Of a stretch of DNA of 64,000 nt, positions 36,389 to 62,820 are shown piece by piece; within the stretch, counting starts at the first letter, position 1; each line of letters begins with the position of its first letter. The notes under the pieces are model-generated. The model was given only the letters and a program-made list of their open reading frames with translations. It searched no databases and had not been told where the DNA came from. The translations under genes and the position numbers were made by a program. Origin of the DNA: an uncultured Alphaproteobacteria bacterium (GTDB taxonomy: Bacteria > Pseudomonadota > Alphaproteobacteria > CAZZKF01); assembly GCA_964654995.1 (NCBI GenBank), contig CAZZKF010000003.1, positions 12,276-76,275 of the forward strand. The letters run 5' to 3'.

Positions 36389-36510
36389 TCTGGCCGTGAT
36401 CCGATCAACTCGGTGGCAACCGCCACCGGTCGGTTGCGTTTGTTCCCCCGGTTCCTATACTTGCGGCGGGCGAAGTCCCGGATCGCACTTCTGTGGGGGA
36501 GCCGTTGATG

Positions 36511-37593
36511 TCGATCAAGCGCCGCACTTTTCTCAAACGGGCCGCGGCCGGAACCGTGGCCGGGGCGACGCTCAGCGCCCCGGCAATCGCCGCCGGACGG
36601 CGCCGTCTCAAGATGGTCACCACCTGGCCGAAGAACTTTCCCGGCGTCGGCACCGGCGCCGAGCGCCTCGCCCGGCGGATCACCGAGGCCAGCGACGGCC
36701 AGCTCACCGTGCGGGTGCTGGCCGCCGGCGAACTGGTCCCCGCTTTCAGCTCGTTCGATGCGGTGTCCAGCGGCACCGCCGAGATGTATCACGGCGCCGA
36801 TTACTACTGGCAGGGCAAGTCCAAGGCCTTCAACTTCTATTCCGCCGTCCCCTTCGGCATGACCGGGCCGGAACTGGCCGCCTGGATCCGGGTCGGCGGC
36901 GGTCAGGAGCTGTGGGACGAACTGTGCGCGCCGTTCGGCATCAAGCCGTTCTTCGCCGGCGGCACCGGGGCCCAGATGGGCGGCTGGTTCAAGAAGGAAA
37001 TCAATTCGCTGGAGGACTTCAAGGGCCTCAAGATCCGCATGCCGGGATTGGGCGGCGAGGTTCTGCGGCGCCTTGGCGCGGCCGCCGTCACTCTGCCGGC
37101 CGGCGAGATTTTCCCGGCCCTGCAGTCGGGTGCGATCGACGCCACCGAATGGATCGGACCGTGGAACGATCTTGCCTTCGGCTTCTACAAGATCGTCAAA
37201 TACTACTACTACCCGGGCTTTCACGAACCCGGCACCGGTCTGGGGGTGGGCATCAACATGGAGGTCTGGGAGAGCTTCACCAAAAGCCAGAAGGCGATCA
37301 TCCGCGACGCCATGGCCGCCGAGCAGAGCGTCATGGTCGCCGAATTCGACGGCCGCAACGCCCAGGCGCTCGAGGTCCTGCTGCGCGATCACGGCGTCAA
37401 GCTGCGCCGCTTTTCGGACGACATCCTGCGCGCCATCCGCAAGGTCTCGGCCGAAGTCGTCGCCAAGGCCGCCGAGAGCGATGCCATGTCGAAAAAGGTC
37501 TATGACAGCTACACGGCGTTCCAGAAAAGCATCATGGGCTGGAGTGATGTCACGGCGCATGCCTACGAGAACGCCCGGCGTCTGCCCGATTGA
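36511..37593 (+). CDS. dctP: TRAP transporter substrate-binding protein (DctP family), Tat signal
   Basis: MSIKRRTFLKRAAAGTVAGATLSAPAIAAG is a twin-arginine signal, followed by a DctP-like periplasmic binding fold. Confidence 0.8.
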   Translation, partial: SIKRRTFLKRAAAGTVAGATLSAPAIAAGRRRLKMVTTWPKNFPGVGTGAERLARRITEASDGQLTVRVLAAGELVPAFSSFDAVSSGTAEMYHGADYYWQGKSKAFNFYSAVPFGMTGPELAAWIRVGGGQELWDELCAPFGIKPFFAGGTGAQMGGWFKKEINSLEDFKGLKIRMPGLGGEVLRRLGAAAVTLPAGEIFPALQSGAIDATEWIGPWNDLAFGFYKIVKYYYYPGFHEPGTGLGVGINMEVWESFTKSQKAIIRDAMAAEQSVMVAEFDGRNAQALEVLLRDHGVKLRRFSDDILRAIRKVSAEVVAKAAESDAMSKKVYDSYTAFQKSIMGWSDVTAHAYENARRLPD

Positions 37594-45673: not shown

Positions 45674-46126
45674 TCAAGCCTGCACCGATCCGCGGCCGTT
45701 CCCGGAGACCGGCGATCCATCACCCGCCGCCAGCGGCTCGGCGGTGATGATGACGATCGCCTGGGCCAGCGGATGGTCGTCGGTAAGCGTGAGGTGAATG
45801 CGTGGGCGATGCCCCGGCGGGGTGATCTCGTGCAGGCGCGCAAGCGCGCCGCCGGTGAGCTCCATGGTCGGCCGGCCGCCGGGCTCGTTCACCACGCCCA
45901 GGTCGCGCCAGAAGACGCCCTTGCGAAAACCGGTGCCAAGCGCCTTGGCGCAGGCCTCCTTGGCGGCGAAACGCTTGGCATAGCTGGCGGCGCGGTTGGC
46001 CCGGCGCTCCGATTTTTCCCGCTCGATATCGGTGAAGACACGGGCGATGAAGCGCTCGCCGAACCGGTCGAGGCTGTTCTCGATGCGGCGGATATCGATA
46101 ATGTCGTTGCCCAGCCCGATGATCAT
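45674..46126 (-). CDS. acpS: Holo-ACP synthase
   Basis: [16 protein letters not shown]...[14 protein letters not shown] is the canonical AcpS sequence. Confidence 0.8.
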
Positions 46127-46130
46127 GCCG

Positions 46131-46895
46131 TTAGCCGTCGCCAACGCCGGCCCGGGCGCGATGCGCATCCATCTGGCGGCGCATCTCGACAATCGCCGCC
46201 TCCAGCCCGACAAACACCGCCTCGCCGATCAGGAAATGGCCGATGTTGAGCTCGACGATCTGCGGGATCGCCGCCACCGGCCCGACGGTCTCGTAATCGA
46301 GGCCGTGACCGGCATGGCATTCCAGGCCCAGCTCGACGGCGAGGCGAGCCGCCGCCTGCAAGCGGGCAAGCTCGGCTGCACGCGCCGCGCCCTCGGCCTC
46401 GACATAGGTGCCGGTATGAAGCTCCACCGCCGGCGCCCCGACGTCGGCCGCGGCGCGAAGCTGGGCTTCGTCCGGATCGATGAACAGGGCAACGCGGATG
46501 CCGGCGCCTGACAGCCGGGCCACGGCCTGCCCGATCTGGTCGCGGGCCGCGGCGACATCCAGCCCGCCTTCGGTGGTCAGTTCCTGGCGGCGTTCGGGGA
46601 CCAGACAGCAGGCATGCGGGCGATGGCGGCAGGCAATCGCGATCATCTCCGGCGTTGCCGCCATCTCGAGGTTGAGCGGCAGGTCGATCTCGGTCATCAG
46701 CCGGGCGATATCATCGTCGACGATATGGCGGCGATCCTCGCGCAGATGCGCGGTAATGCCGTCGGCCCTGGCCCTGGCAGCAATCCGGGCGCCGCGCAGG
46801 GGATCGGGATGGCGGCCGCCGCGGGCGTTGCGCAGCGTTGCAATGTGATCGATGTTGACGCCCAGGCGCAGAGGCGCAATCGCGGTCGTGGTCAT
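46131..46895 (-). CDS. pdxJ: Pyridoxine 5'-phosphate synthase
   Basis: [27 protein letters not shown]... is a canonical PdxJ N-terminus. The start overlaps the stop of the upstream DUF2062 gene (ATGA). Confidence 0.9.
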
Positions 46896-47500
46896 GATGC
46901 AGCGTGATCCTGATTGCCCTGGGGTCGGCTCGCGGCGCTGGCCTCGAGGCGCTTCTCGAGGCGTTCTTCGAGATGGCGGCGGCGGCGTTCGCGATAGCTG
47001 GTCAGCAGGTGGCCGACCGACCAGAACACCGCCCACCAGACCGCGATCCCGGTGATCAGCCCGCCCACCGTCATCGGCAGCAGCAACGGCCCCAATGTGC
47101 CGATCGGATCGATCAGAATATCGCCCAGCGACAGATGCACGGTGGAATGCGCGGGATCGACCGTCCGCATGCCCAGAACCCAGGCGCCGAGCCGATAGGT
47201 CCACATCCATATCAAGGGGAACGTCCAGGGATTGCCGACCGCGGTGCCGATGGCCGAGGCCAGCACGTTGACGCCGAGCATCCAGGCCAGCAGCACCGCG
47301 AGCAGCAGATGCAGGCCGATAAACGGGGTGAACGAAATCGCTGCACCACAGGCCAGCCCGGCGGCGATCGAGTACGGCGAGCCGGGCAGCCGCGCCACCC
47401 GGTAGCGCAGGTACAGAAACGCGCGGCGCCAGCCGGCGCTGGGCCAGAAGAATTCCCGCACTTGGCGCCAGGCGCGGCGTTTGACTCGGCTGCGAAACAC
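46892..47500 (-). CDS. DUF2062-family membrane protein
   Basis: 202 aa with 3-4 TM helices. DUF2062 proteins are commonly encoded upstream of pdxJ/acpS. Confidence 0.55.
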
Positions 47501-47577
47501 GTTTCCCGTTCTTTCTGTTCCCGTGTGCGTTCCTGCCCTGAATCAGTTGTCTTCGTTCGCGCGCGGCCGAGGCAATC

Positions 47578-49725
47578 CTAGCCCCGCACGCGCTCGACCT
47601 GATGGACGACGCGGCTGGCCCGGAGCGCGGCGATGATGTTGGTCAGATGCTTCACGTCGCGGACCTCGATGTCGACATCGACCCCGAAGAACTTGGGATT
47701 GCGCTCGACGATCTTCAGGTTCGAGATGTTGCCCTGGTTCTTGGCAATCACCGTCGCCAGTGTACCAAGGGCGCCCGCTTCGTTTACTAGCATTGTGGTG
47801 ATTCGTCCAACATGAAATCCCGGGTCCCGGGCATTCACGTCCCAGGATACGTCGAGCCAGCGCTCGGGCACCTCGGCATAGCTTTCCAGCGTCTCGCAGT
47901 CGATGGTGTGGATCATGATCCCCTTGCCCTTCTCGACAATTCCGACAATGCGGTCGCCGGGGATCGGGTAGCAGCATTCCGAGAGGTGCACGGCCATGCC
48001 CGGGGTCAGGCCCTTGATCGGGATCGGGCGGCCTTCGCCATTGCTGGCCGGGTTGCGGAAGAAGGGTTCGGCATCGGCCGGCTGGCCCTTGAACTCAAAG
48101 CCCGGGAAGACCGCCTCGAACACCTGTTTGGCGCTCAGCTCGCCTTTGCCGACGGCGACGAACAGATCCTCATCGCTCTTGAATTTCAGCACCTGGCGGG
48201 CCCGGCTCTGGGCCTTGCGGCCGAAGTCCTGGCCTTCCTGGTCGAAGGCGCGCTCGAGAATGGCAAGGCCGAGCTCCGCATACTGGGCCCGTTCCTGGGC
48301 GCGGATGAAGCGGCGAATGGCGGAGCGCGCCTTGCCGCTGACCACGAAGGTTTCCCATTTCGGCGACGGCGTCTGGGCCTTGGAGCGCAAAATTTCCACC
48401 TGGTCGCCATTGCGCAGGCGGGTGCGCAGGGGCACCAGCCCGCCGTTGACCTTGGCGCCAACGCAGGTATCACCGATATCGGTGTGCACGGCGTAGGCGA
48501 AATCGACCGGCGTGGCGCCGCGCGGCAGGGCGATCAGATCGCCCTTGGGGGTAAAGCAGAACACCTGATCCTGGAACATCTCCAGCTTGGTGTGTTCGAG
48601 AAATTCCTCCGGCGACGAGCCGTGATCGAGAATTTCCAGCAGCTCGCGCAGCCAGCGGTACTGGGTGCCGCCGACATGGCGTTTGCGCGCGCTCTGCTTG
48701 TACTGCCAGTGGGCGGCGACGCCGAGCTCGGCCACCCGGTGCATCTCGCGGGTGCGGATCTGAATTTCGATGCGCTGCTTTTCCGGCCCGATCACGGTGG
48801 TGTGGATCGACTGGTACTGGTTGCGCTTGGGCGTCGAGATGTAGTCCTTGAAGCGCCCCGGCACCATCGTCCAGGTCGTGTGCACGACGCCAAGCGCGCG
48901 ATAGCAGGCTTCGCGGTCGTCGACCAGAATGCGAAACGCCATGATGTCGCACAGCTGCTCGAACGAGATGTTGTTCTTCTGCATCTTGCGCCAGATCGAA
49001 TAGGGCCGCTTCAGGCGGCCGACGACTTCCGCCTTGATTCCGTTCTTGGCAAGCGTGCGCTGCAGCTTGCGCGACACCCGGGCCTGAAGGTTGCCGGCCG
49101 ATTTGCGCAGGAATTCGAGCCGCGCCAGGATCGATTCGCGGGCCTCGGGGTGCAACTCGGCAAACGCCAGATCCTCGAGCTCGTCCTTCATTGCCTGCAT
49201 GCCGATGCGCTCGGCCAGCGGCGCATAGATTTCCATGGTCTCGAGGGCGATGCGGCGGCGCTTGTCCGGGTCCTTGATGTGCGAGAGCGTGCGCATGTTG
49301 TGCAGCCGGTCGGCGAGCTTGACCAGCAGCACCCGGATATCGTTGGACATGGCGAGCAGAAACTTGCGGAAGTTTTCCGCCTCGCGGGCACGCTCCGAGG
49401 TCAGCTCGATCTGCGACAGCTTGGTCACCCCGTCGACCAGGGTGGCGATTTCGGATCCGAACAGTTCCTCGAGTTCCTCGCGGGTTGCGACCGTGTCCTC
49501 GATGGTATCATGCAGCAGCGCGGTGGCGATGGTGGCACCGTCGAGCTTCATGTCGGTGAGAATGCCGGCGACTTCGAGGGGATGCGAAAAATAGGGATCG
49601 CCCGAGGCCCGGGTCTGGCTGCCATGCGCCTTCATCGAAAACACGTAGGCGCGGTTGAGCACCGCCTCGTTGACGCTGCTGTCGTAGGATTTGACTTTTT
49701 CGACCAGTTCGTATTGCCGGATCAC
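47578..49725 (-). CDS. rsh: Bifunctional (p)ppGpp synthetase/hydrolase (Rel/SpoT homologue)
   Basis: 715 aa with an HD hydrolase domain (HPLEVAGIL...LHDTIEDT), a synthetase domain ([12 protein letters not shown]), and TGS and ACT domains. Confidence 0.9.
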
Positions 49726-52332: not shown

Positions 52333-52534
52333 CGCCCCCAACCACCGTTTGTTGCCTGTCGGCCCCGGGTGTTCGCCGCCCACTATTCTCGAAACCGGCA
52401 GCGATCACAAGACAGAGATAAAGGACGGACCCGCCGCCCCCTTGGTGCAGCGGCGGCCTTCGATGACGGTTGGATCGCGGGCATTGTCGATCACCGGGAC
52501 TGTGCCTCGGCCGGCAAAATGAAGTCCGTCCCCG

Positions 52535-53155
52535 TTACAGGATCAGCTCTGAAACATCCCTGTAATCGCCGAGCTTGCCCTTGATGAAGGTATTGAAGGC
52601 CAGGGAATATCTTGGCTGGCTGGACATATTGACCTGAACGAGGTGCTGCAGGCTTGAAGAGAAGATGATCAGGTCGTTCTTTTGCGGCAGGATCAGGTTT
52701 TTCGTGGTGTTGTAGATGTTCACTTTCCCCTGCTCCGGAAAAAGCTCGATCTGCTGATAGGTTCTGTGGCGCTCGAATATCATCCCGGCCACCGGCTCCG
52801 GCATATCCGTGTAGTACAGGGACCCGGACACCACCGAGTTCGAATGGGTATGGCTGTGCATGCCAACGTTCGGCGGGTTTATCAGCGACCACGACTGCGT
52901 CACATAGAGCTTCTGGCGGATTCCCAGGACTTCGGCGGCAAATATGTCGAGGACTTCCTGGACCGCCTCCTTGATGCTCTTGAGCTCCGGTTCCTCGAAA
53001 ATGTAAAGGTTCTCGGAAATCAGATTCATCTGATTCGGAACCATTTTCAGATTCTTCAGATAGTCGATCTGCGCGTCGCTGATCGCGTGACCGATGTTGG
53101 CCTTGAGATAGGGTTCAACAAATAACGGATGGACTTCGTAGTCGATGCTCGCCAT
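52535..53155 (-). CDS. Putative 2OG-Fe(II) oxygenase-like protein (TIGR02466-like), low-GC islet
   Basis: 206 aa, MASIDYEVHPLFVEPY.... Local GC is markedly lower than the flanks (roughly 50% by eye) with an A/T-rich third position. Contains a His cluster (GMHSHTHSN). Confidence 0.5.
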   Translation of the reverse strand: MASIDYEVHPLFVEPYLKANIGHAISDAQIDYLKNLKMVPNQMNLISENLYIFEEPELKSIKEAVQEVLDIFAAEVLGIRQKLYVTQSWSLINPPNVGMHSHTHSNSVVSGSLYYTDMPEPVAGMIFERHRTYQQIELFPEQGKVNIYNTTKNLILPQKNDLIIFSSSLQHLVQVNMSSQPRYSLAFNTFIKGKLGDYRDVSELIL

Positions 53156-53436
53156 GGCTCGCCAACCCCCCTGCCGCCATGAAGTCAGGCCCGGAAATAT
53201 GCACTACAGAATTAATTGGTGTCCAGAGTTTCTCGCAGCTCCGATTATGTCTCCGGCGTCCAAACGGACTCGCCCGTTCCGACCTTTTGCAGGGCGGTGA
53301 CGGGCCGGCAGCACCGGGCCAGGCCCGGACTCGGCCCGCAGCTTGTGTGCGCTGCCGGCGGCTGGTGCGGCTTGCGCAAGGACCGGCTTGGGCGCTACAA
53401 CCGTCGGCTGGGAGGAGAGATTCGGAGGAGCAATCC

Positions 53437-57757: not shown

Positions 57758-57771
57758 CTTGACATGGGTCA
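57758..57771. promoter_or_regulatory. CRP/FNR-family palindrome TTGACATGGGTCAA upstream of nirK
   Basis: Perfect 5-4-5 inverted repeat (TTGAC-N4-GTCAA), ~150 nt upstream of the nirK ATG, in an otherwise GC-rich 415-nt intergenic region. Confidence 0.5.
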
Positions 57772-57922
57772 AGGATGCATTGTCTGTTCTGCACTAGCGT
57801 CCCGGCGCAACGATAACTTCGCGTCAACGAACGGGTATGGCCGTACGGCCAGCGACTCCAGGAAACCCGTCAAGGCAATGCTACCGACGCCCAGACCGGG
57901 CGTCTCGCCGAAAGGAGCGATC

Positions 57923-59326
57923 ATGACTGCACCGATTCCCGAGCGACGCCGCCCGTTCCGGTGGATTCCGGCGACCGTCGGCCTGGTTCTGCTGATCTGC
58001 CTGCCGGCAGCGACCGCTCTGGCCGCCATGGCCGCCGAGCCAACCGATGTCAATTATGAACCCGAAGCCCGCTTCACGCTGATCACCACGGTGGCGCACG
58101 GCCAGATGGCCTTCATCGGAGAGGGTGGGCTTATCGACGGCATCATCAATCCCACGCTTGTGGTCAAGCAAGGCACGATCGTGCAAATCACATTGATCAA
58201 TGGCGAGGGAGCCAAACACGACATCGTCATCCCCGAATTCGGTGTCAACTCGCAATGGGTCACCGATCCGGAGGGAAGCACCGTCACCGTGTTTCGCGCC
58301 GATGGCCCCGGCGAGTTCACCTATTACTGCAGTATTCCCGGCCATCGCGAGGCCGGCATGGAAGGCTTGATCCGTGTCGTCGCAGAGCCCGAGGTGATTG
58401 TTGGCGGCAAGGCCGACATTTCGCGCCTGCCGACCGACCTGCCCAAGCCGGTGGGCAAGCGCAAACCCAAGACCGTCCGTTACGAGCTCGAAACCCTCGA
58501 GGTCGACGGCCAGTTGAGCGACGGCACGTCGTATACCTTCTGGACCTTCGGCGGCAAAGTGCCGGGGCCGTTCCTGCGGGCCCGCGTCGGCGACACCATC
58601 GAACTGGTGCTCAAGAACTCGCAGGGCAGCCTGATGACCCACTCCATCGATCTGCACGCGGTCAACGGGCCGGGCGGTGGCGGCGCCGTGACACAGGTCC
58701 CGCCGGGCCAGAAGCGCATTTTCACGTTCAAGGCGTTGACCCCGGGACTGTACGTCTATCACTGCGCCACGCCGATGGTCGCCAACCATATCGCCAACGG
58801 CATGTACGGGCTGGTTCTGATCGAGCCGGAAGGCGGTCTGCCGCCGGTCGATCGTGAATTCTACGTCATGCAGGGCGAGGTCTACACGGCTGCCGGCTAC
58901 GGCATGCACGGCTATCAGGAATTCAGTGTCCGCAAGCTGCTCGAAGAACGGCCCGACTATTTCGTCTTCAATGGCGCCGTCGGAGCGATCAGCCGCGATC
59001 ATCCCCTGAAGGCCAAGGCTGGGGAGACCGTGCGCATCTTCTTCGGCAACGGCGGGCCGAATTTCACCTCGAACTTCCACGTGATCGGTGAAATCTTCGA
59101 CCGCGTTTACGAGCACGGCAGTGTGCTGACGCCGCCGCTCAAAGGCGTTCAGACCATTCCGGTCTCACCGGGCAGCGCCGCCATTGTCGATATGAAGCTT
59201 GATGTTCCGGGACGTTATCTCCTGGTCGATCATGCACTGGCGCGCATGGAACGCGGCCTCGTCGGATTTCTCAGGGTCTCCGGCAAGGACAATCCCGCGG
59301 TCTTTCATGAAGGACGAGCCAAATAG
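57923..59326 (+). CDS. nirK: Copper-containing nitrite reductase with an additional N-terminal cupredoxin domain
   Basis: RBS AAGGAG precedes the ATG. Signal peptide (RRRPFRW...ALAAMAA), then a ~100-aa plastocyanin/amicyanin-like domain (HDIVIPEF...YYCSIPGHREAGMEG), then the canonical two-domain NirK with T1Cu (HCATPMVANHIANGMYG) and T2Cu ligands (HSIDLHAV). Confidence 0.88.
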   Translation: MTAPIPERRRPFRWIPATVGLVLLICLPAATALAAMAAEPTDVNYEPEARFTLITTVAHGQMAFIGEGGLIDGIINPTLVVKQGTIVQITLINGEGAKHDIVIPEFGVNSQWVTDPEGSTVTVFRADGPGEFTYYCSIPGHREAGMEGLIRVVAEPEVIVGGKADISRLPTDLPKPVGKRKPKTVRYELETLEVDGQLSDGTSYTFWTFGGKVPGPFLRARVGDTIELVLKNSQGSLMTHSIDLHAVNGPGGGGAVTQVPPGQKRIFTFKALTPGLYVYHCATPMVANHIANGMYGLVLIEPEGGLPPVDREFYVMQGEVYTAAGYGMHGYQEFSVRKLLEERPDYFVFNGAVGAISRDHPLKAKAGETVRIFFGNGGPNFTSNFHVIGEIFDRVYEHGSVLTPPLKGVQTIPVSPGSAAIVDMKLDVPGRYLLVDHALARMERGLVGFLRVSGKDNPAVFHEGRAK

Positions 59327-59406
59327 GCTTGCGTGATTGGCGGCCCGGGCCTCTTTTGCGAAATCGGCCCGGGCCAAAATCACTGCATTGGTTGAAGGAT
59401 GACGGC

Positions 59407-59802
59407 ATGAAACAGGCGGCATTCCGCATTTCGCTCGGGCTGGTGCTGGCAATGTTCACGGCAAGCACAGTGGTGCAAGCTGCCGGCGATCCCGAAAAGG
59501 GCGCCAAGATATTCCAACGTTGCAAGGCCTGCCACACCCTGATCGAGGGGCAGAAGAAGATCGGCCCCAATCTGCGCAACGTGTTCGGACGCAAGGCCGG
59601 CTCCTTGCCTGCCTACCGCTATTCCAAGGCCATGTCGAAAGCAGGAGAATCAGGGATTGTCTGGAACGAGGAAACTCTGGACAAATTCCTCAAGAAACCT
59701 TCCAAGTTCGTGCGCGGGACCGAGATGATGTTCAACGGCATCCGGTCGGCCCAACAGCGCCAGGACGTGATCGAGTTCCTCAAGCAACAGACCACCAGAT
59801 AA
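59407..59802 (+). CDS. Class I cytochrome c (c2/c550-like)
   Basis: Signal peptide, GDPEKGAKIFQRCKACHT (CxxCH), GPNLRNVFGRKAG and a Met ligand region (GTEMMFNG). 131 aa, sits 80 nt downstream of nirK. Confidence 0.8.
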   Translation: MKQAAFRISLGLVLAMFTASTVVQAAGDPEKGAKIFQRCKACHTLIEGQKKIGPNLRNVFGRKAGSLPAYRYSKAMSKAGESGIVWNEETLDKFLKKPSKFVRGTEMMFNGIRSAQQRQDVIEFLKQQTTR

Positions 59803-59809
59803 CCGTACC

Positions 59810-59842
59810 GGTGGCGCCGGCGCCTGGTTCGCCGGCGCCACC
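59810..59842 (+). terminator. GC hairpin immediately after the cytochrome c gene
   Basis: ggtggcgccggcg - cctggttc - cgccggcgccacc, a perfect 12-13 bp stem, with no U-tract. Confidence 0.35.
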
Positions 59843-60388
59843 GAGCGGGCCCGCCCCGAGGGCCGATCAACACCCACAAGCAGGCCAAACGCCAGCCCCG
59901 ACGTGATCTGTCTCGCGGCACGATGCGCCGACACGGCGCGGCCACCGCCGGCAAGGCATGGACGTCACCCCGCTGGCAGCAGGCCTGCGTGCCTGCCAGG
60001 GCCCGGCTCGATGGCCGGTGATCGATCGCGCGGCACCATCGGAGGCACCGGTGCCGGCTTGACCGGACGTAGGCGTCGAGCCCGGCACTGCACCGTCTGT
60101 GGCATGGCGTGCCGGACCCGCGGCAGCGCACGACGTTTCCGGCCCGGCACCGGATCGGGCTGCGGCGGCCGGCCGCCCGTACAGAGCCACCGGATCCTGC
60201 GCTTCGCCTGACCGGTGCGGGATGCAACAGCGCCCAGGATGTGCTCCGCCGGACCAGCACAGACTGGCCGGCCAGGCGGATCCGCGGCCTTCACCCGCAC
60301 GCCCGGCGCTGGAGAGAGCGGCAACGGCCAAAGAAAATCGGCGGGTGGGAGACCGTTTCGGCCTCGCCACCCGCCGTCAGATCGGGGA

Positions 60389-60421
60389 CCCCGCCGGCGC
60401 CTCCGCGAAACGCCGGCGGGG
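60389..60421 (-). terminator. GC hairpin immediately downstream of the cytochrome-porin gene
   Basis: ccccgccggcg - 11 nt loop - cgccggcgggg, a perfect 11-bp stem 19 nt after the stop of the minus-strand gene. Confidence 0.35.
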
Positions 60422-60439
60422 TTCATCATACGGGGAGTT

Positions 60440-61690
60440 CTAGAACCCGACGGCTGCCTGGATGGTGAACCGTCCACCCTTCTGGAAACCGGTCGGAACG
60501 TTCACTTCCTTGTACCATTCGCCAAAGATCTTGACGTTTTCATAGAGGTAGTAGGAAACGTTCGCCGTCAGTGCCGTGAAGTCCTGCATGCCATTGTTGC
60601 GTTCGAAGCCTTCGATCCGCAGCGACGGCACGATCCATGGTGACTCGGCGTCGGGGCGACGGAACACATAGATGCCCTCGAAGTACCAGGCGTTGTTCTT
60701 CTCCTTCATCGGAAAATCGACGTCGATTTCGTTGACATCGTCGCGGGCATGAACAAAGGCGCCGTGGAAGATGGCATCGGCCACTTCAACCTGGGCATCG
60801 ATTCCGAAGCGGTCGAAGTCGCGTTTGATGGCGCAGACCTCCTCCTGTATGCCTTCGTCTTCGACAACCGTCCCGGCCTGGCATTCACCGGAAAACGCAA
60901 AGCCGCCGATCATCACCTGATCGGGCAGCACGTCGAACATCACCCGGCCACTGAGGTTGCTGGCCTTGTCACCCTCGAAATCACTGGCAATGCCGCTGTA
61001 GCTGGCGCTGTAGAAAAGGCGATCAAGAAGCCGCCCGGACACCGACACCACCTGACGGTTGCTTTTCAGGCTGCCATTGGCGTCGGCCCCGCCAAACGGA
61101 CTGCTGATCACAACGTTGCGTCCGCGGGTCAGGGCTCGTCCGCCCAGGGTGTCGTACGGATCGGTCATGAAAAGCTTTCCGTAGCCGAAGGTCACGTTGA
61201 AGAACGGCGCCGCATGGTAGGTCACCCAACCACTTCCGGCGAGCTGGAAGCCTTCGTCGGACTCACCCTCGAGTTCCAGGAATCCCGAAACCTTCTTGTT
61301 GATCGCACCGGCGGCCATCAGGTGAACGGCTTCCAGCGCCCGGTTGTTGCGCTCGCCGCCTTCCACCTTGTCGTAGGGCTGGGACTCGAAGACCACCGCG
61401 CCCGGAAATTGTTTGTCGAATTGAAGCAGATCGGACAGGATGCTGCCCGGATCGTCGGTCTTTCTGAACTTGTAACCATTTTGCTTGAATTTGCGTCCCG
61501 TGGAGTTCAACAGCGGCCATGCCGCATGGCATTCGCTGCAGGCCACCTTGTACTTGCGAGCGAAAGCCGGGATCGCCAGGGCTTGGGGCGCAAACAGCCC
61601 GGCGAAAAACAGTGCCCCCATTGCCGTGAACACTGCCTTTCTTGCGAAACTGCCCGTCATGACGGTTCTCCCTTCTCGTGTTCGTTTCAT
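60440..61690 (-). CDS. Monoheme c-type cytochrome fused to a predicted outer-membrane beta-barrel (Cyc2-like)
   Basis: Signal peptide (MKRTREGRTVMTGSFARKAVFTAMGALFFAGLFAPQALA) and a single CSECH heme motif ~15 aa after the predicted cleavage site. About 370 aa of Gly/aromatic-rich sequence with alternating hydrophobic strands follow. The C-terminus GRFTIQAAVGF ends in Phe, the classic OMP C-terminal signature. Start is 61690 or 61660. Confidence 0.6.
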   Translation of the reverse strand: MKRTREGRTVMTGSFARKAVFTAMGALFFAGLFAPQALAIPAFARKYKVACSECHAAWPLLNSTGRKFKQNGYKFRKTDDPGSILSDLLQFDKQFPGAVVFESQPYDKVEGGERNNRALEAVHLMAAGAINKKVSGFLELEGESDEGFQLAGSGWVTYHAAPFFNVTFGYGKLFMTDPYDTLGGRALTRGRNVVISSPFGGADANGSLKSNRQVVSVSGRLLDRLFYSASYSGIASDFEGDKASNLSGRVMFDVLPDQVMIGGFAFSGECQAGTVVEDEGIQEEVCAIKRDFDRFGIDAQVEVADAIFHGAFVHARDDVNEIDVDFPMKEKNNAWYFEGIYVFRRPDAESPWIVPSLRIEGFERNNGMQDFTALTANVSYYLYENVKIFGEWYKEVNVPTGFQKGGRFTIQAAVGF

Positions 61691-61761
61691 GCGGAGGCCC
61701 CTGCCTCCTTTGACCAACATGAGCGATGGGCACGGCATACCGGGAAATTTGGCATTTATGA

Positions 61762-61775
61762 TTGATATATATCAA
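61762..61775. promoter_or_regulatory. Consensus FNR box TTGATATATATCAA in the divergent cyc2-like / fnr promoter region
   Basis: Perfect TTGAT-N4-ATCAA, 72 nt upstream of the ATG at 61690 and ~310 nt upstream of the fnr-type gene. It lies in the only AT-rich stretch of this region. Confidence 0.6.
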
Positions 61776-62085
61776 TCCACGGAGGTTTCTGATGGTCCAT
61801 ACAGATCGCCCGGCAAGCCGGAACCAACCCGCTTGTAGCATCAGGACGACCCAATATGCTGGCAGCTAAGACGACATCTATGGGCCAATTATTCATCCAC
61901 TTCAATCTGGTAAAGATGTTCAGTGAGTTTGGACACCGACCGGACGCTCGCCCCTTCGCCACCCCGCACACCATCGATGAGCACAACGGCTTAAACCTGC
62001 GTCACTTTGCCACACTGTTGACTTATATCAAAGTAAATTACGTCAGTTCCCTCGGTGGTGTATGCTAATGAGGAGGCGCAGAACG

Positions 62086-62820
62086 ATGTCATTCGAACGC
62101 ACACTGCCGAAATCCTGTCTGGGATGTCCCGTTTACCTGCGCACCGAGTGGTGCGTACTGGGTCGTACCGGGCTGGCGCAACTGGCGCGCCGGCGCAAGC
62201 CCCTCGACTTTCAGCCCGGCCAGATCATTTTCCAGCAAAAGAGCCTGTCGCAGGGCATCTACTGCATCGAAAGCGGCCACATCCTGTTGCGCCAGGTCGA
62301 CACTTTCGGCAACGAAACCGCCTTTCGCGTATTGACCGGCGGCGAAACCGTGGGCTGGCGCAGCCTGTTCGGTGAACAGCCCCACGCCGCCACCGCCCAG
62401 GCGCTGACCGCCTGCCGGCTGTGTCTGATCACGCGCGACGATTTCGAGGATCTGGCGGCCAGCTACCCGGATCTGGTTCGCCGCTTTCTCAAGACCGTCG
62501 CCACCGACCGCGGCCCGGCGGAAGCGCTGTTGCTGCGCAGTCCGTTGCTGCCGGTTCACATTCGGCTGATCCATCTTCTGATTCTGTTGCGTGACCGCTG
62601 CGCGACCTCGGTGTCGCCGCAGGCGTTGGTGCTGGAACTGCCGCTCAAGCGCAAGCAGATCGCCTCGATGATCGGGGCGCGCACGGAAACCCTGTCGCGG
62701 GCCATCCGCCAGCTTGGCGATATGGAGCTGGCCCAGTTCGAAGGCCGCCGGGTGATGATCCCCGACTATACCCGGCTGCTGGAAATGGTCCGTCAGGTGT
62801 GCACCGAGTCCGGCATCTGA
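62086..62820 (+). CDS. CRP/FNR-family regulator with N-terminal Cys cluster and FNR-type recognition helix
   Basis: RBS AGGAGG at 62071-62076. N-terminal CLGCPVYLRTEWC (three Cys) plus internal Cys. A cNMP-like beta-roll (GQIIFQQKS...GETVG), and a C-terminal HTH containing TETLSRAIRQL, i.e. the E--SR motif that reads TTGAT half-sites. Confidence 0.8.
   Translation: MSFERTLPKSCLGCPVYLRTEWCVLGRTGLAQLARRRKPLDFQPGQIIFQQKSLSQGIYCIESGHILLRQVDTFGNETAFRVLTGGETVGWRSLFGEQPHAATAQALTACRLCLITRDDFEDLAASYPDLVRRFLKTVATDRGPAEALLLRSPLLPVHIRLIHLLILLRDRCATSVSPQALVLELPLKRKQIASMIGARTETLSRAIRQLGDMELAQFEGRRVMIPDYTRLLEMVRQVCTESGI

Follow-up and report, generated by a model that had tools for sequence, protein, structure and literature searches.

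A divergent Cyc2-like fused cytochrome-porin gene with an FNR-type promoter box near nirK in an uncultured alphaproteobacterium

No genetic marker of microbial iron oxidation is in wider use than the Cyc2 proteins, in which a cytochrome and an outer-membrane porin are fused, and few members of the family have been tested. According to Keffer et al. (PMC8406198), a Cyc2 protein has a signal peptide, a single CXXCH, the motif AXPXFAR[Q/K][T/Y] upstream and PXL downstream of it, a length of at least 365 amino acids and a 16-strand porin modelled on OprO/OprP; the upstream motif is described as unique to Cyc2. In the rus operon cyc2 is paired with a second cytochrome gene, cyc1 (PMC10654088). The MtrCAB, MtoAB and PioAB systems are built differently, with a decaheme cytochrome as a separate protein that is enclosed by a barrel of about 26 strands (PMC10654088). 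Here we describe a gene for a Cyc2-like protein found in 64,000 nucleotides of an uncultured alphaproteobacterium (contig CAZZKF010000003.1; the whole of this 64-kb stretch is called the window below). The evidence supports the view that the protein is a divergent, so far unannotated member of the known Cyc2 family and not a new type of system. We consider it rather likely that it is an outer-membrane protein which passes extracellular electrons to a periplasmic cytochrome, under the control of an FNR-type regulator.

The gene lies on the minus strand (60440..61660) and encodes 406 amino acids plus a stop codon. Each of the features listed by Keffer et al., checked one by one, has its counterpart in the protein: a signal peptide, one CXXCH, the upstream motif as A29-IPAFARKY37, the downstream motif as P49-L-L51, a length of 406 amino acids and a predicted 16-strand barrel. 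This match to the published diagnostic pattern bears out the sequence-only reading, made from the DNA and its translations, which had taken the gene for a Cyc2-like monoheme cytochrome fused to a beta-barrel. Membership was judged by these published criteria and by homologues from Caballeronia and Ralstonia, the characterised Cyc2 proteins being compared by their descriptions. Conservation was read from a close alignment of the 27 closest relatives (34-54% identity, all annotated as "hypothetical") and from a distant alignment of 12 more remote ones.

The Cyc2 signature (residues 29-51; 61508..61576, minus strand) consists of A-I-P-A-F-A-R-K-Y, K-V-A, C-S-E-C-H, A-A-W and P-L-L in succession. 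The heme-binding motif, C41-S-E-C-H45 (61526-61540), is the sole CxxCH of the protein, and each of the 27 close homologues likewise has exactly one. A29-IPAFARKY37 sits three residues before C41; Keffer et al. word the distance between motif and CXXCH as "5 amino acids upstream" (PMC8406198). The proline P49 stands 4 residues after the heme histidine (H45-A-A-W-P49-L-L51); at least 90% of the sequences in the close alignment and all of those in the distant one share it, and L51 is invariant in the close alignment. C41, C44 and H45 are invariant in all 27 close and 12 distant relatives, and the CxxCH together with the surrounding 30 residues is invariant or nearly so in the same set. The full list of invariant positions in the 27-relative alignment is A27, A29, P31, F33, A34, C41, C44, H45, L51 and the terminal Phe. 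Column conservation in this alignment is highest in the heme motif and its flanks (0.76 as against 0.63 in the strands).

By inspection, residues 1-29 (61574..61660, minus strand) form a signal peptide with a basic n-region (R7, K8), a hydrophobic core and a predicted cleavage site after A27-L-A29, i.e. A29|I30. The two alanines at positions -3 and -1 of the site, A27 and A29, are invariant in the 27 homologues. The heme motif begins 12 residues past this site. A cleavable signal peptide with an AxA site, and a CSECH within about 15 residues of the mature N-terminus, had both been read from the translation, and both hold. A further claim, that there are no other Cys pairs, fails, as the protein has two more cysteines, C260 and C276. 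They are both present in 15 of the 27 homologues and both absent in the remaining 12, and they flank a predicted hairpin (strands 264-268 and 271-276) in the L5 loop between strands 9 and 10 (60833..60883, minus strand), which appears as an extra hairpin in the structural model described below. Because the two residues come and go together across the subfamily, we think that they probably form a surface disulfide that stiffens loop L5. The statement that the remainder is rich in Gly, Tyr, Phe and Asn stands for Gly (10.3%) and Phe (8.2%); Tyr (3.7%) and Asn (4.8%) are not enriched.

The fold was predicted with AlphaFold2 on the 27-sequence alignment (mean predicted local distance difference test score, pLDDT, 78.7; predicted TM-score, pTM, 0.77). 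The model contains 16 transmembrane strands that form a porin-like barrel of residues 87-406 (60443..61402, minus strand). From about residue 91 to residue 406 the pLDDT means of 10-residue blocks lie mostly in the range 80-95 and drop to 66 in two blocks that belong to loops. The turns on one side of the barrel are short (mostly 2-4 residues, one of them 9), and the loops on the opposite side are longer. This is the opposite of a soluble or helical protein, the outcome that the sequence-only reading had named as its own refutation. Its claim of a C-terminal beta-barrel signature also agrees with the data: the last ten residues, R-F-T-I-Q-A-A-V-G-F (60443..60472, minus strand), have hydrophobic residues at positions 1, 3, 5, 7 and 9 from the C-terminus, and the terminal Phe is found in 27 of 27 homologues. 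Foldseek matches of the model are Omp32, OmpU, OmpF, OprP and OprO; the phosphate/anion porin OprP is the top structural match, followed by the anion-selective Omp32, and the structural alignments to 16-strand porins have 9-14% identity. The likeness to porins is at the level of the fold only, since no Pfam porin model (Porin_4 and relatives) matches the protein at E <= 1 and a precomputed PF13609 match exists for only 2 of 31 homologues.

A 40-residue loop between strands 5 and 6 (residues 162-201) bears a conserved DPYDT...LTRG...GGAD motif. By its position in the model this loop would be L3, the constriction loop of porins. Its conservation is like that of the strands (0.65 versus 0.63), while the other long surface loops are far more variable (0.21 in L5, 0.23 in L6). 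Given the L3 position and the strand-like conservation, the loop is a candidate part of the heme pocket. We also note a peculiarity of strand 2 (residues 110-113, 61322-61333). The subfamily reads R-A-L-H-E-V-E-L there and the histidine is 96% conserved; the present protein reads R-A-L-E-A-V-H-L, i.e. this histidine is a glutamate and a histidine follows three residues later, an apparent His/Glu swap.

A second homologue search, with a distant alignment as query, yielded metagenomic proteins alone, none of them named. A tblastn search of plasmids with a distant relative led to homologues on Caballeronia and Ralstonia replicons; the same search with the protein itself (P0001) and with P0031 gave no matches. 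Burkholderia and Ralstonia are among the genera rich in Cyc2 homologues (Keffer et al., PMC8406198). The Caballeronia and Ralstonia proteins are of the FARQT type and read ALPAFARQTGLACVACHVSFPEL and ANPLFARQTGLNCASCHTIYPEL, respectively, with a spacing of motif, heme site and PXL identical to that of the Cyc2-like protein. BLASTP aligns them only over the 48-residue heme region (44% identity, E 2e-10), which fits the known poor conservation of the porin part of Cyc2. The profile of the subfamily matches both proteins (hhalign E 1.8e-12 and 5.5e-13), and it aligns over its full length with a distant group of 400-480 amino acids that shares the N-terminal motif (hhalign E 3.5e-62). The Caballeronia gene is located on plasmid pSBC1_3 of Caballeronia sp. 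SBC1, a soil host, where genes for a high-potential iron-sulfur protein (HiPIP), the Cyc2-type protein and a c-type cytochrome stand in a row (L062, positions 45955-48972 of the plasmid record). Its annotated coding sequence, WP_206366205 "cytochrome C", starts downstream of the signal peptide and of part of the FARQT motif and looks N-terminally truncated.

An exhaustive profile search of 1.84 billion cluster representatives (50% identity) gave 4,425 matches at E <= 1e-3, 1,830 at E <= 1e-10 and 168 at E <= 1e-30. With 4,425 representatives this type of fusion is common, and the earlier remark that fused porin-cytochromes are rare has to be given up. The close subfamily, with about 382-406 amino acids, is a small branch of the fused cytochrome-porins.

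The noted interval contains a single long open reading frame (ORF), on the minus strand, with its stop codon at 60440-60442 and three candidate in-frame ATGs at 61738, 61690 and 61660. The end at 61690 that had been assigned to the gene is indeed an in-frame ATG (MKRTREG..., the middle one of the three), but the favoured start is 61660 (MTGSF...). This start is the one called in public assemblies of the same contig (NCBI; JGI 3300023440; Logan SRR9849954), whose product P0001 has 406 amino acids and is 100% identical to the Cyc2-like protein; moreover, a GGGAG precedes it by 7 nt, and the resulting signal peptide of 29 residues is about as long as those of the homologues. The start of the longest ORF, 61738, was rejected as it falls within the predicted promoter. 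The mature protein is unaffected by the choice among the start codons. The GC content at third codon positions (GC3) of the gene is 0.74, typical of a coding frame; its overall GC content is 58.6% compared to 65.2% for the window, a difference that would be compatible with lateral acquisition but is no proof of it. The gene has a Shine-Dalgarno sequence, a promoter box and a terminator-like hairpin, i.e. a 12-bp GC-rich inverted repeat just past the stop codon (60388..60422) that is without a T-run and is not called by the terminator scan.

One could argue that we are dealing with an ordinary porin that has a CxxCH by chance, or with a non-functional or mis-called ORF, and the empty Pfam (E <= 1), NCBIfam and PDB (E <= 1 or <= 10) sequence searches would agree with this. 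A mis-called ORF would hardly have such a GC3 or its own expression signals, and a chance motif would hardly be kept, with its surroundings, in close and distant relatives and recur among the 1,830 representatives at E <= 1e-10. The conservation excludes this explanation, and we regard it as extremely improbable.

Our set of species-representative genomes contains 50 homologue loci, all of them in metagenome-assembled genomes. The hosts are mostly Gammaproteobacteria (Woeseiaceae, Thiomargarita, Parabeggiatoa, Thiotrichales, Acidiferrobacterales, Ectothiorhodospiraceae, Methylococcales and Pseudohongiella); the others are Nitrospirota/Thermodesulfovibrionales and two Emcibacter (Alphaproteobacteria). 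In about half of the 50 loci, a c-type cytochrome gene of the same strand (1-3 hemes, 90-260 amino acids) adjoins the Cyc2-like gene, an arrangement that parallels the cyc2-cyc1 pair of the rus operon. The neighbouring cytochrome of Parabeggiatoa resembles cytochrome c4 and flavocytochrome c, and a further match is to structure 1H1O of A. ferrooxidans c-552. A gammaproteobacterial member of the subfamily (P0023, 38% identity) comes from the same sequencing run as the contig of the window (L007/L008, Logan SRR9849954); a 94-residue cytochrome c is encoded immediately upstream of it, and genes for a Crp/Fnr regulator, a MerR regulator and a cytochrome-d1-like beta-propeller are nearby.

The link of the Cyc2-like protein to extracellular electron transfer would follow from its family membership and, by analogy with characterised Cyc2 proteins, Fe(II) is its most likely electron donor. 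The hosts of the relatives would also be in keeping with a broader role, namely that of a general outer-membrane electron gate that is not an Fe(II) oxidase and takes up electrons from surfaces, cathodes, humics or reduced sulfur and metal sulfides, or works in reverse towards an extracellular acceptor. The relatives belong mostly to sulfur-oxidising or sediment and vent Gammaproteobacteria and to Nitrospirota, and multiheme cytochromes are encoded near several of their genes (L019, L049, L047 and L060). Meier et al. (2019, PMC6850669) described Cyc2 homologues in sulfide-chimney bins of Woeseiaceae, other Gammaproteobacteria and Nitrospirae, and reported high expression for one of these homologues; according to the same study, the homologues of such bins cluster with that of the cathode-oxidising "Ca. 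Tenderia electrophaga" and are expressed on inactive sulfide chimneys. On the other hand, these sequences bear on the question only if they belong to the present subfamily, and a single heme inside a 16-strand pore cannot reach a solid surface and would serve dissolved species only (Keffer et al., PMC8406198). The general gate and Fe(II) oxidation are inseparable by sequence alone, and we consider the former an unlikely explanation, though one that deserves attention.

The neighbourhood of the Cyc2-like gene suggests regulation by oxygen or nitric oxide (NO). The palindrome TTGAY-N4-RTCAA, which is the classical FNR/Dnr/NnrR half-site arrangement, occurs in its strict form 4 times in the window against an expectation of 0.11, and three of the four copies are in promoter positions. 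The perfect FNR/CRP-family box of the Cyc2-like gene, TTGATATATATCAA (61762..61775), has its centre some 108 nt before the favoured start codon, 61660, and some 78 nt before the alternative one, 61690. A second box, TTGACTTATATCAA (62018..62031), is centred about 61 nt upstream of the start codon, 62086, of a divergent crp/fnr gene (62086..62820, plus strand). The latter encodes a Crp/Fnr-family regulator of 244 amino acids with N-terminal C11, C14 and C23 and the Pfam domains cNMP_binding and HTH_Crp_2; its matches to the NCBIfam models Fnr and FnrL are weak and sub-threshold. The third box, TTGACATGGGTCAA (57759..57772), is about 150 nt upstream of nirK. These positions suggest that the Cyc2-like gene, fnr and nirK may belong to one low-oxygen or NO-responsive regulon. 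The fourth perfect palindrome, TTGATGTCGATCAA (36505-36518), lies at the very start of an ORF for a DctP-type TRAP solute-binding protein (36493-37593) and may be due to chance or mark a further member of the regulon.

The boxes recur in the homologue loci. Seventeen strict copies were found in 431 kb, and eight of them are within 350 nt upstream of a Cyc2-like gene, in 6 loci that include both Emcibacter genomes. Two more precede the cytochrome gene that heads a cytochrome-Cyc2-like pair (L046, L048). Within the genome set, L011 has the closest homologue (48% identity), and a divergent fnr, 56% identical, is kept there as well. This distribution suggests that a part of the subfamily is under FNR-type, low-oxygen control.

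The nirK gene (57923..59326, plus strand) encodes a copper nitrite reductase with an extra N-terminal cupredoxin, of the Hyphomicrobium HdNIR type, as indicated by TIGR02376, PDB and Pfam matches. It scores 341 bits with the NCBIfam equivalog TIGR02376 (cut-off 296) and is closest to the three-domain enzyme of Hyphomicrobium denitrificans (PDB 2dv6, E 3.6e-173). It is co-transcribed with the gene of a periplasmic class I cytochrome c of the mitochondrial/c550 type (59407..59802, plus strand; Pfam Cytochrom_C, PDB cytochrome c at about 1e-26, CycA c-550 match sub-threshold). This cytochrome c is a candidate electron acceptor of the Cyc2-like protein.

The same neighbourhood can be read in another way, i.e. 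the protein might be mainly an OprP-like anion channel that passes nitrite, nitrate or another solute to NirK, with a heme that serves as a sensor, a gate or a protection against NO or Fe(II). The anion porins at the top of the structural matches and the proximity of nirK, which shares the FNR-type box, would be consistent with such a role. We nevertheless find it distinctly improbable because the heme motif with its flanks is better conserved than the strands and does not vary even in distant relatives whose surroundings are free of nitrite reductase genes, and because the gene that recurs as a neighbour encodes a periplasmic c-type cytochrome, an indication of electron transfer. The idea that the gene is always next to nirK was itself rejected.

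We return to an electron-transferring Cyc2-family protein, for which the following course of events can be proposed. The protein would be exported by the Sec pathway and cut by signal peptidase after Ala29, the alanine with which the family motif opens. One heme c would be attached at C41 and C44, with H45 as an axial ligand, and the beta-barrel assembly machinery (BAM) would insert the 16-strand barrel of 320 residues via the C-terminal signal. The heme peptide would then pack in or at the barrel, probably against the conserved loop of residues 162-201, since a cytochrome domain that stands by itself would need more than the approximately 55 residues available between the mature N-terminus and the first strand. 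By analogy with characterised Cyc2 proteins, Fe(II) in solution, or a different small reductant from outside the cell, could enter the pore and reduce the heme, and the electron would pass on to a periplasmic c-type cytochrome. When oxygen is low, the Crp/Fnr regulator encoded next to the gene probably induces it from its own promoter with the perfect FNR-type box, and the nirK-cytochrome c operon would apparently be induced together with it. The final acceptor of the electrons may be the copper nitrite reductase, in which case nitrite reduction would depend on Fe(II), or else a high-affinity oxidase.

A number of observations weigh against this interpretation and need to be discussed. Firstly, the sequence similarity to FARQT-type Cyc2 homologues is mostly in the 48-residue heme region. 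The subfamily members of about 382-406 amino acids are all annotated as "hypothetical", come from uncultured organisms, and none has been characterised; the function of divergent Cyc2 homologues is openly uncertain, and Keffer et al. warn that they may have other functions (PMC8406198). Secondly, neither the close nor the distant alignment reveals a conserved Met or His as the distal heme ligand, and the heme segment (residues 18-47) is modelled with pLDDT below 50; this low confidence is as expected for a model without cofactor, and it leaves the predicted placement of the heme peptide at the barrel tentative. Thirdly, the genomic context is not uniform. A clear NirK orthologue is missing within 6 kb in every one of the 50 homologue loci, and the Nitrospirota members are found among pyrimidine-biosynthesis genes, between pyrC and carA. 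In the window the Cyc2-like gene is convergent with the nirK-cytochrome c operon and separately terminated, and the 64 kb contain no other iron-oxidation marker and no further c-type cytochrome.

Two findings go beyond the sequence-only reading, namely the recurrence of FNR-type control across the subfamily and the local pairing of the gene with nirK and its cytochrome c; in combination, they turn Fe(II)-dependent nitrite reduction into a hypothesis that can be tested. In its strongest form, the FNR-controlled short Cyc2 subfamily would form the outer-membrane entry to an anaerobic chain of enzymatic Fe(II) oxidation that has nitrite as its terminal acceptor and runs from the Cyc2-like protein via the c550-type cytochrome c to the three-domain NirK, under one Crp/Fnr regulator, in a marine-type alphaproteobacterium. 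This is highly speculative and, in our opinion, doubtful as a whole. If it were true, it would represent a genetically compact route of nitrite-dependent iron oxidation that is open to reconstitution. In any case, the locus adds a divergent subfamily that is wholly missed by standard Pfam/NCBIfam annotation, as well as a physical and apparent regulatory link of a Cyc2-like gene to nirK and its cytochrome c donor. If that link is functional, it provides a small, testable set of genes for enzymatic Fe(II)-dependent nitrite reduction, a process often ascribed to abiotic side reactions.

The rest of the window can be described briefly. A 14-bp GC-rich hairpin follows the nirK-cytochrome c operon (59809-59843), and between it and the inverted repeat of the Cyc2-like gene there is an unusually long convergent gap of about 540 bp with about 69% GC (59844-60387), which has neither a called gene nor a convincing ORF and is without a match in Rfam. 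An Rfam scan of 59700-62150 gave no match, and scans for sigma-70 promoters and intrinsic terminators in 59300-62200 called nothing. A 70-residue ORF (61856-62068, plus strand) is called in public assemblies; it is probably no gene, as it was found in only two fetched loci, which are copies of one and the same contig. Its place is the AT-richer intergenic stretch with the promoters, between the box of the Cyc2-like gene (61762-61775) and fnr, where it overlaps the box closer to fnr (62018-62031). The remaining genes are housekeeping genes of alphaproteobacterial flavour, e.g. for a ubiquinol-cytochrome c chaperone, CtaA, an H+-pyrophosphatase and an IcmF-like fused mutase, together with TRAP transporters, ParC, Era and SpoT. 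The best named relatives of ParC (a Sphingomonadales metagenome-assembled genome, Govanella, Luteithermobacter, Kordiimonas and Kiloniellaceae) are only 66-72% identical, therefore the host has no close cultured relative. The base composition varies along the window: GC3 is 0.69-0.77 in the 52-62 kb stretch and mostly 0.8-0.88 elsewhere, and the GC content dips to about 55% at 52400-53200, over a 2-oxoglutarate-Fe(II) oxygenase gene (52535-53155, GC at second codon positions 0.29), compared to about 65% in the window.

Finally, it is instructive to compare the Cyc2-like protein with the known outer-membrane systems. Classical porins such as OprP/OprO, Omp32 and OmpF share no significant sequence similarity with it and are without a heme peptide. 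The MtrCAB, MtoAB and PioAB systems resemble it in as much as an outer-membrane barrel moves electrons across the membrane. The underlying architecture is different, since here 16 strands and one heme are part of the same polypeptide and no decaheme gene is nearby; the 64-kb window has no multiheme cytochrome gene at all, and the combination of about 26 strands and a decaheme partner that marks MtrB, MtoB and PioB is absent. The homologues of Caballeronia sp. SBC1 (WP_206366205) and of a Ralstonia syzygii megaplasmid ORF share the motif-heme-PXL spacing and have profile E-values around 1e-12. They have about 450 amino acids and longer loops, compared to 406 here, and the Caballeronia gene has HiPIP and c-type cytochrome genes as neighbours, in contrast to nirK, the c550-type cytochrome c and fnr in the present locus. 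Unlike in FARQT-type Cyc2, K-Y replaces Q-T in the motif and the porin part is without detectable BLASTP similarity. The protein is also shorter than most Cyc2 proteins (406 amino acids, 382-406 in the subfamily, versus typically at least 400), and it differs from the known ones in its co-varying Cys pair in a surface loop, its FNR-type promoter boxes, its uncultured alphaproteobacterial host and its nirK neighbour. Apart from these differences, the general features are those of Cyc2 as described for A. ferrooxidans Cyc2, M. ferrooxydans Cyc2PV-1 and Leptospirillum Cyt572 (PMC7029218, PMC8406198): a signal peptide, a single N-terminal CXXCH with AXPXFAR[Q/K][T/Y] before and PXL after the heme site, a predicted 16-strand OprP-like barrel with a C-terminal Phe and, in many homologue loci, an adjoining gene for a periplasmic c-type cytochrome.

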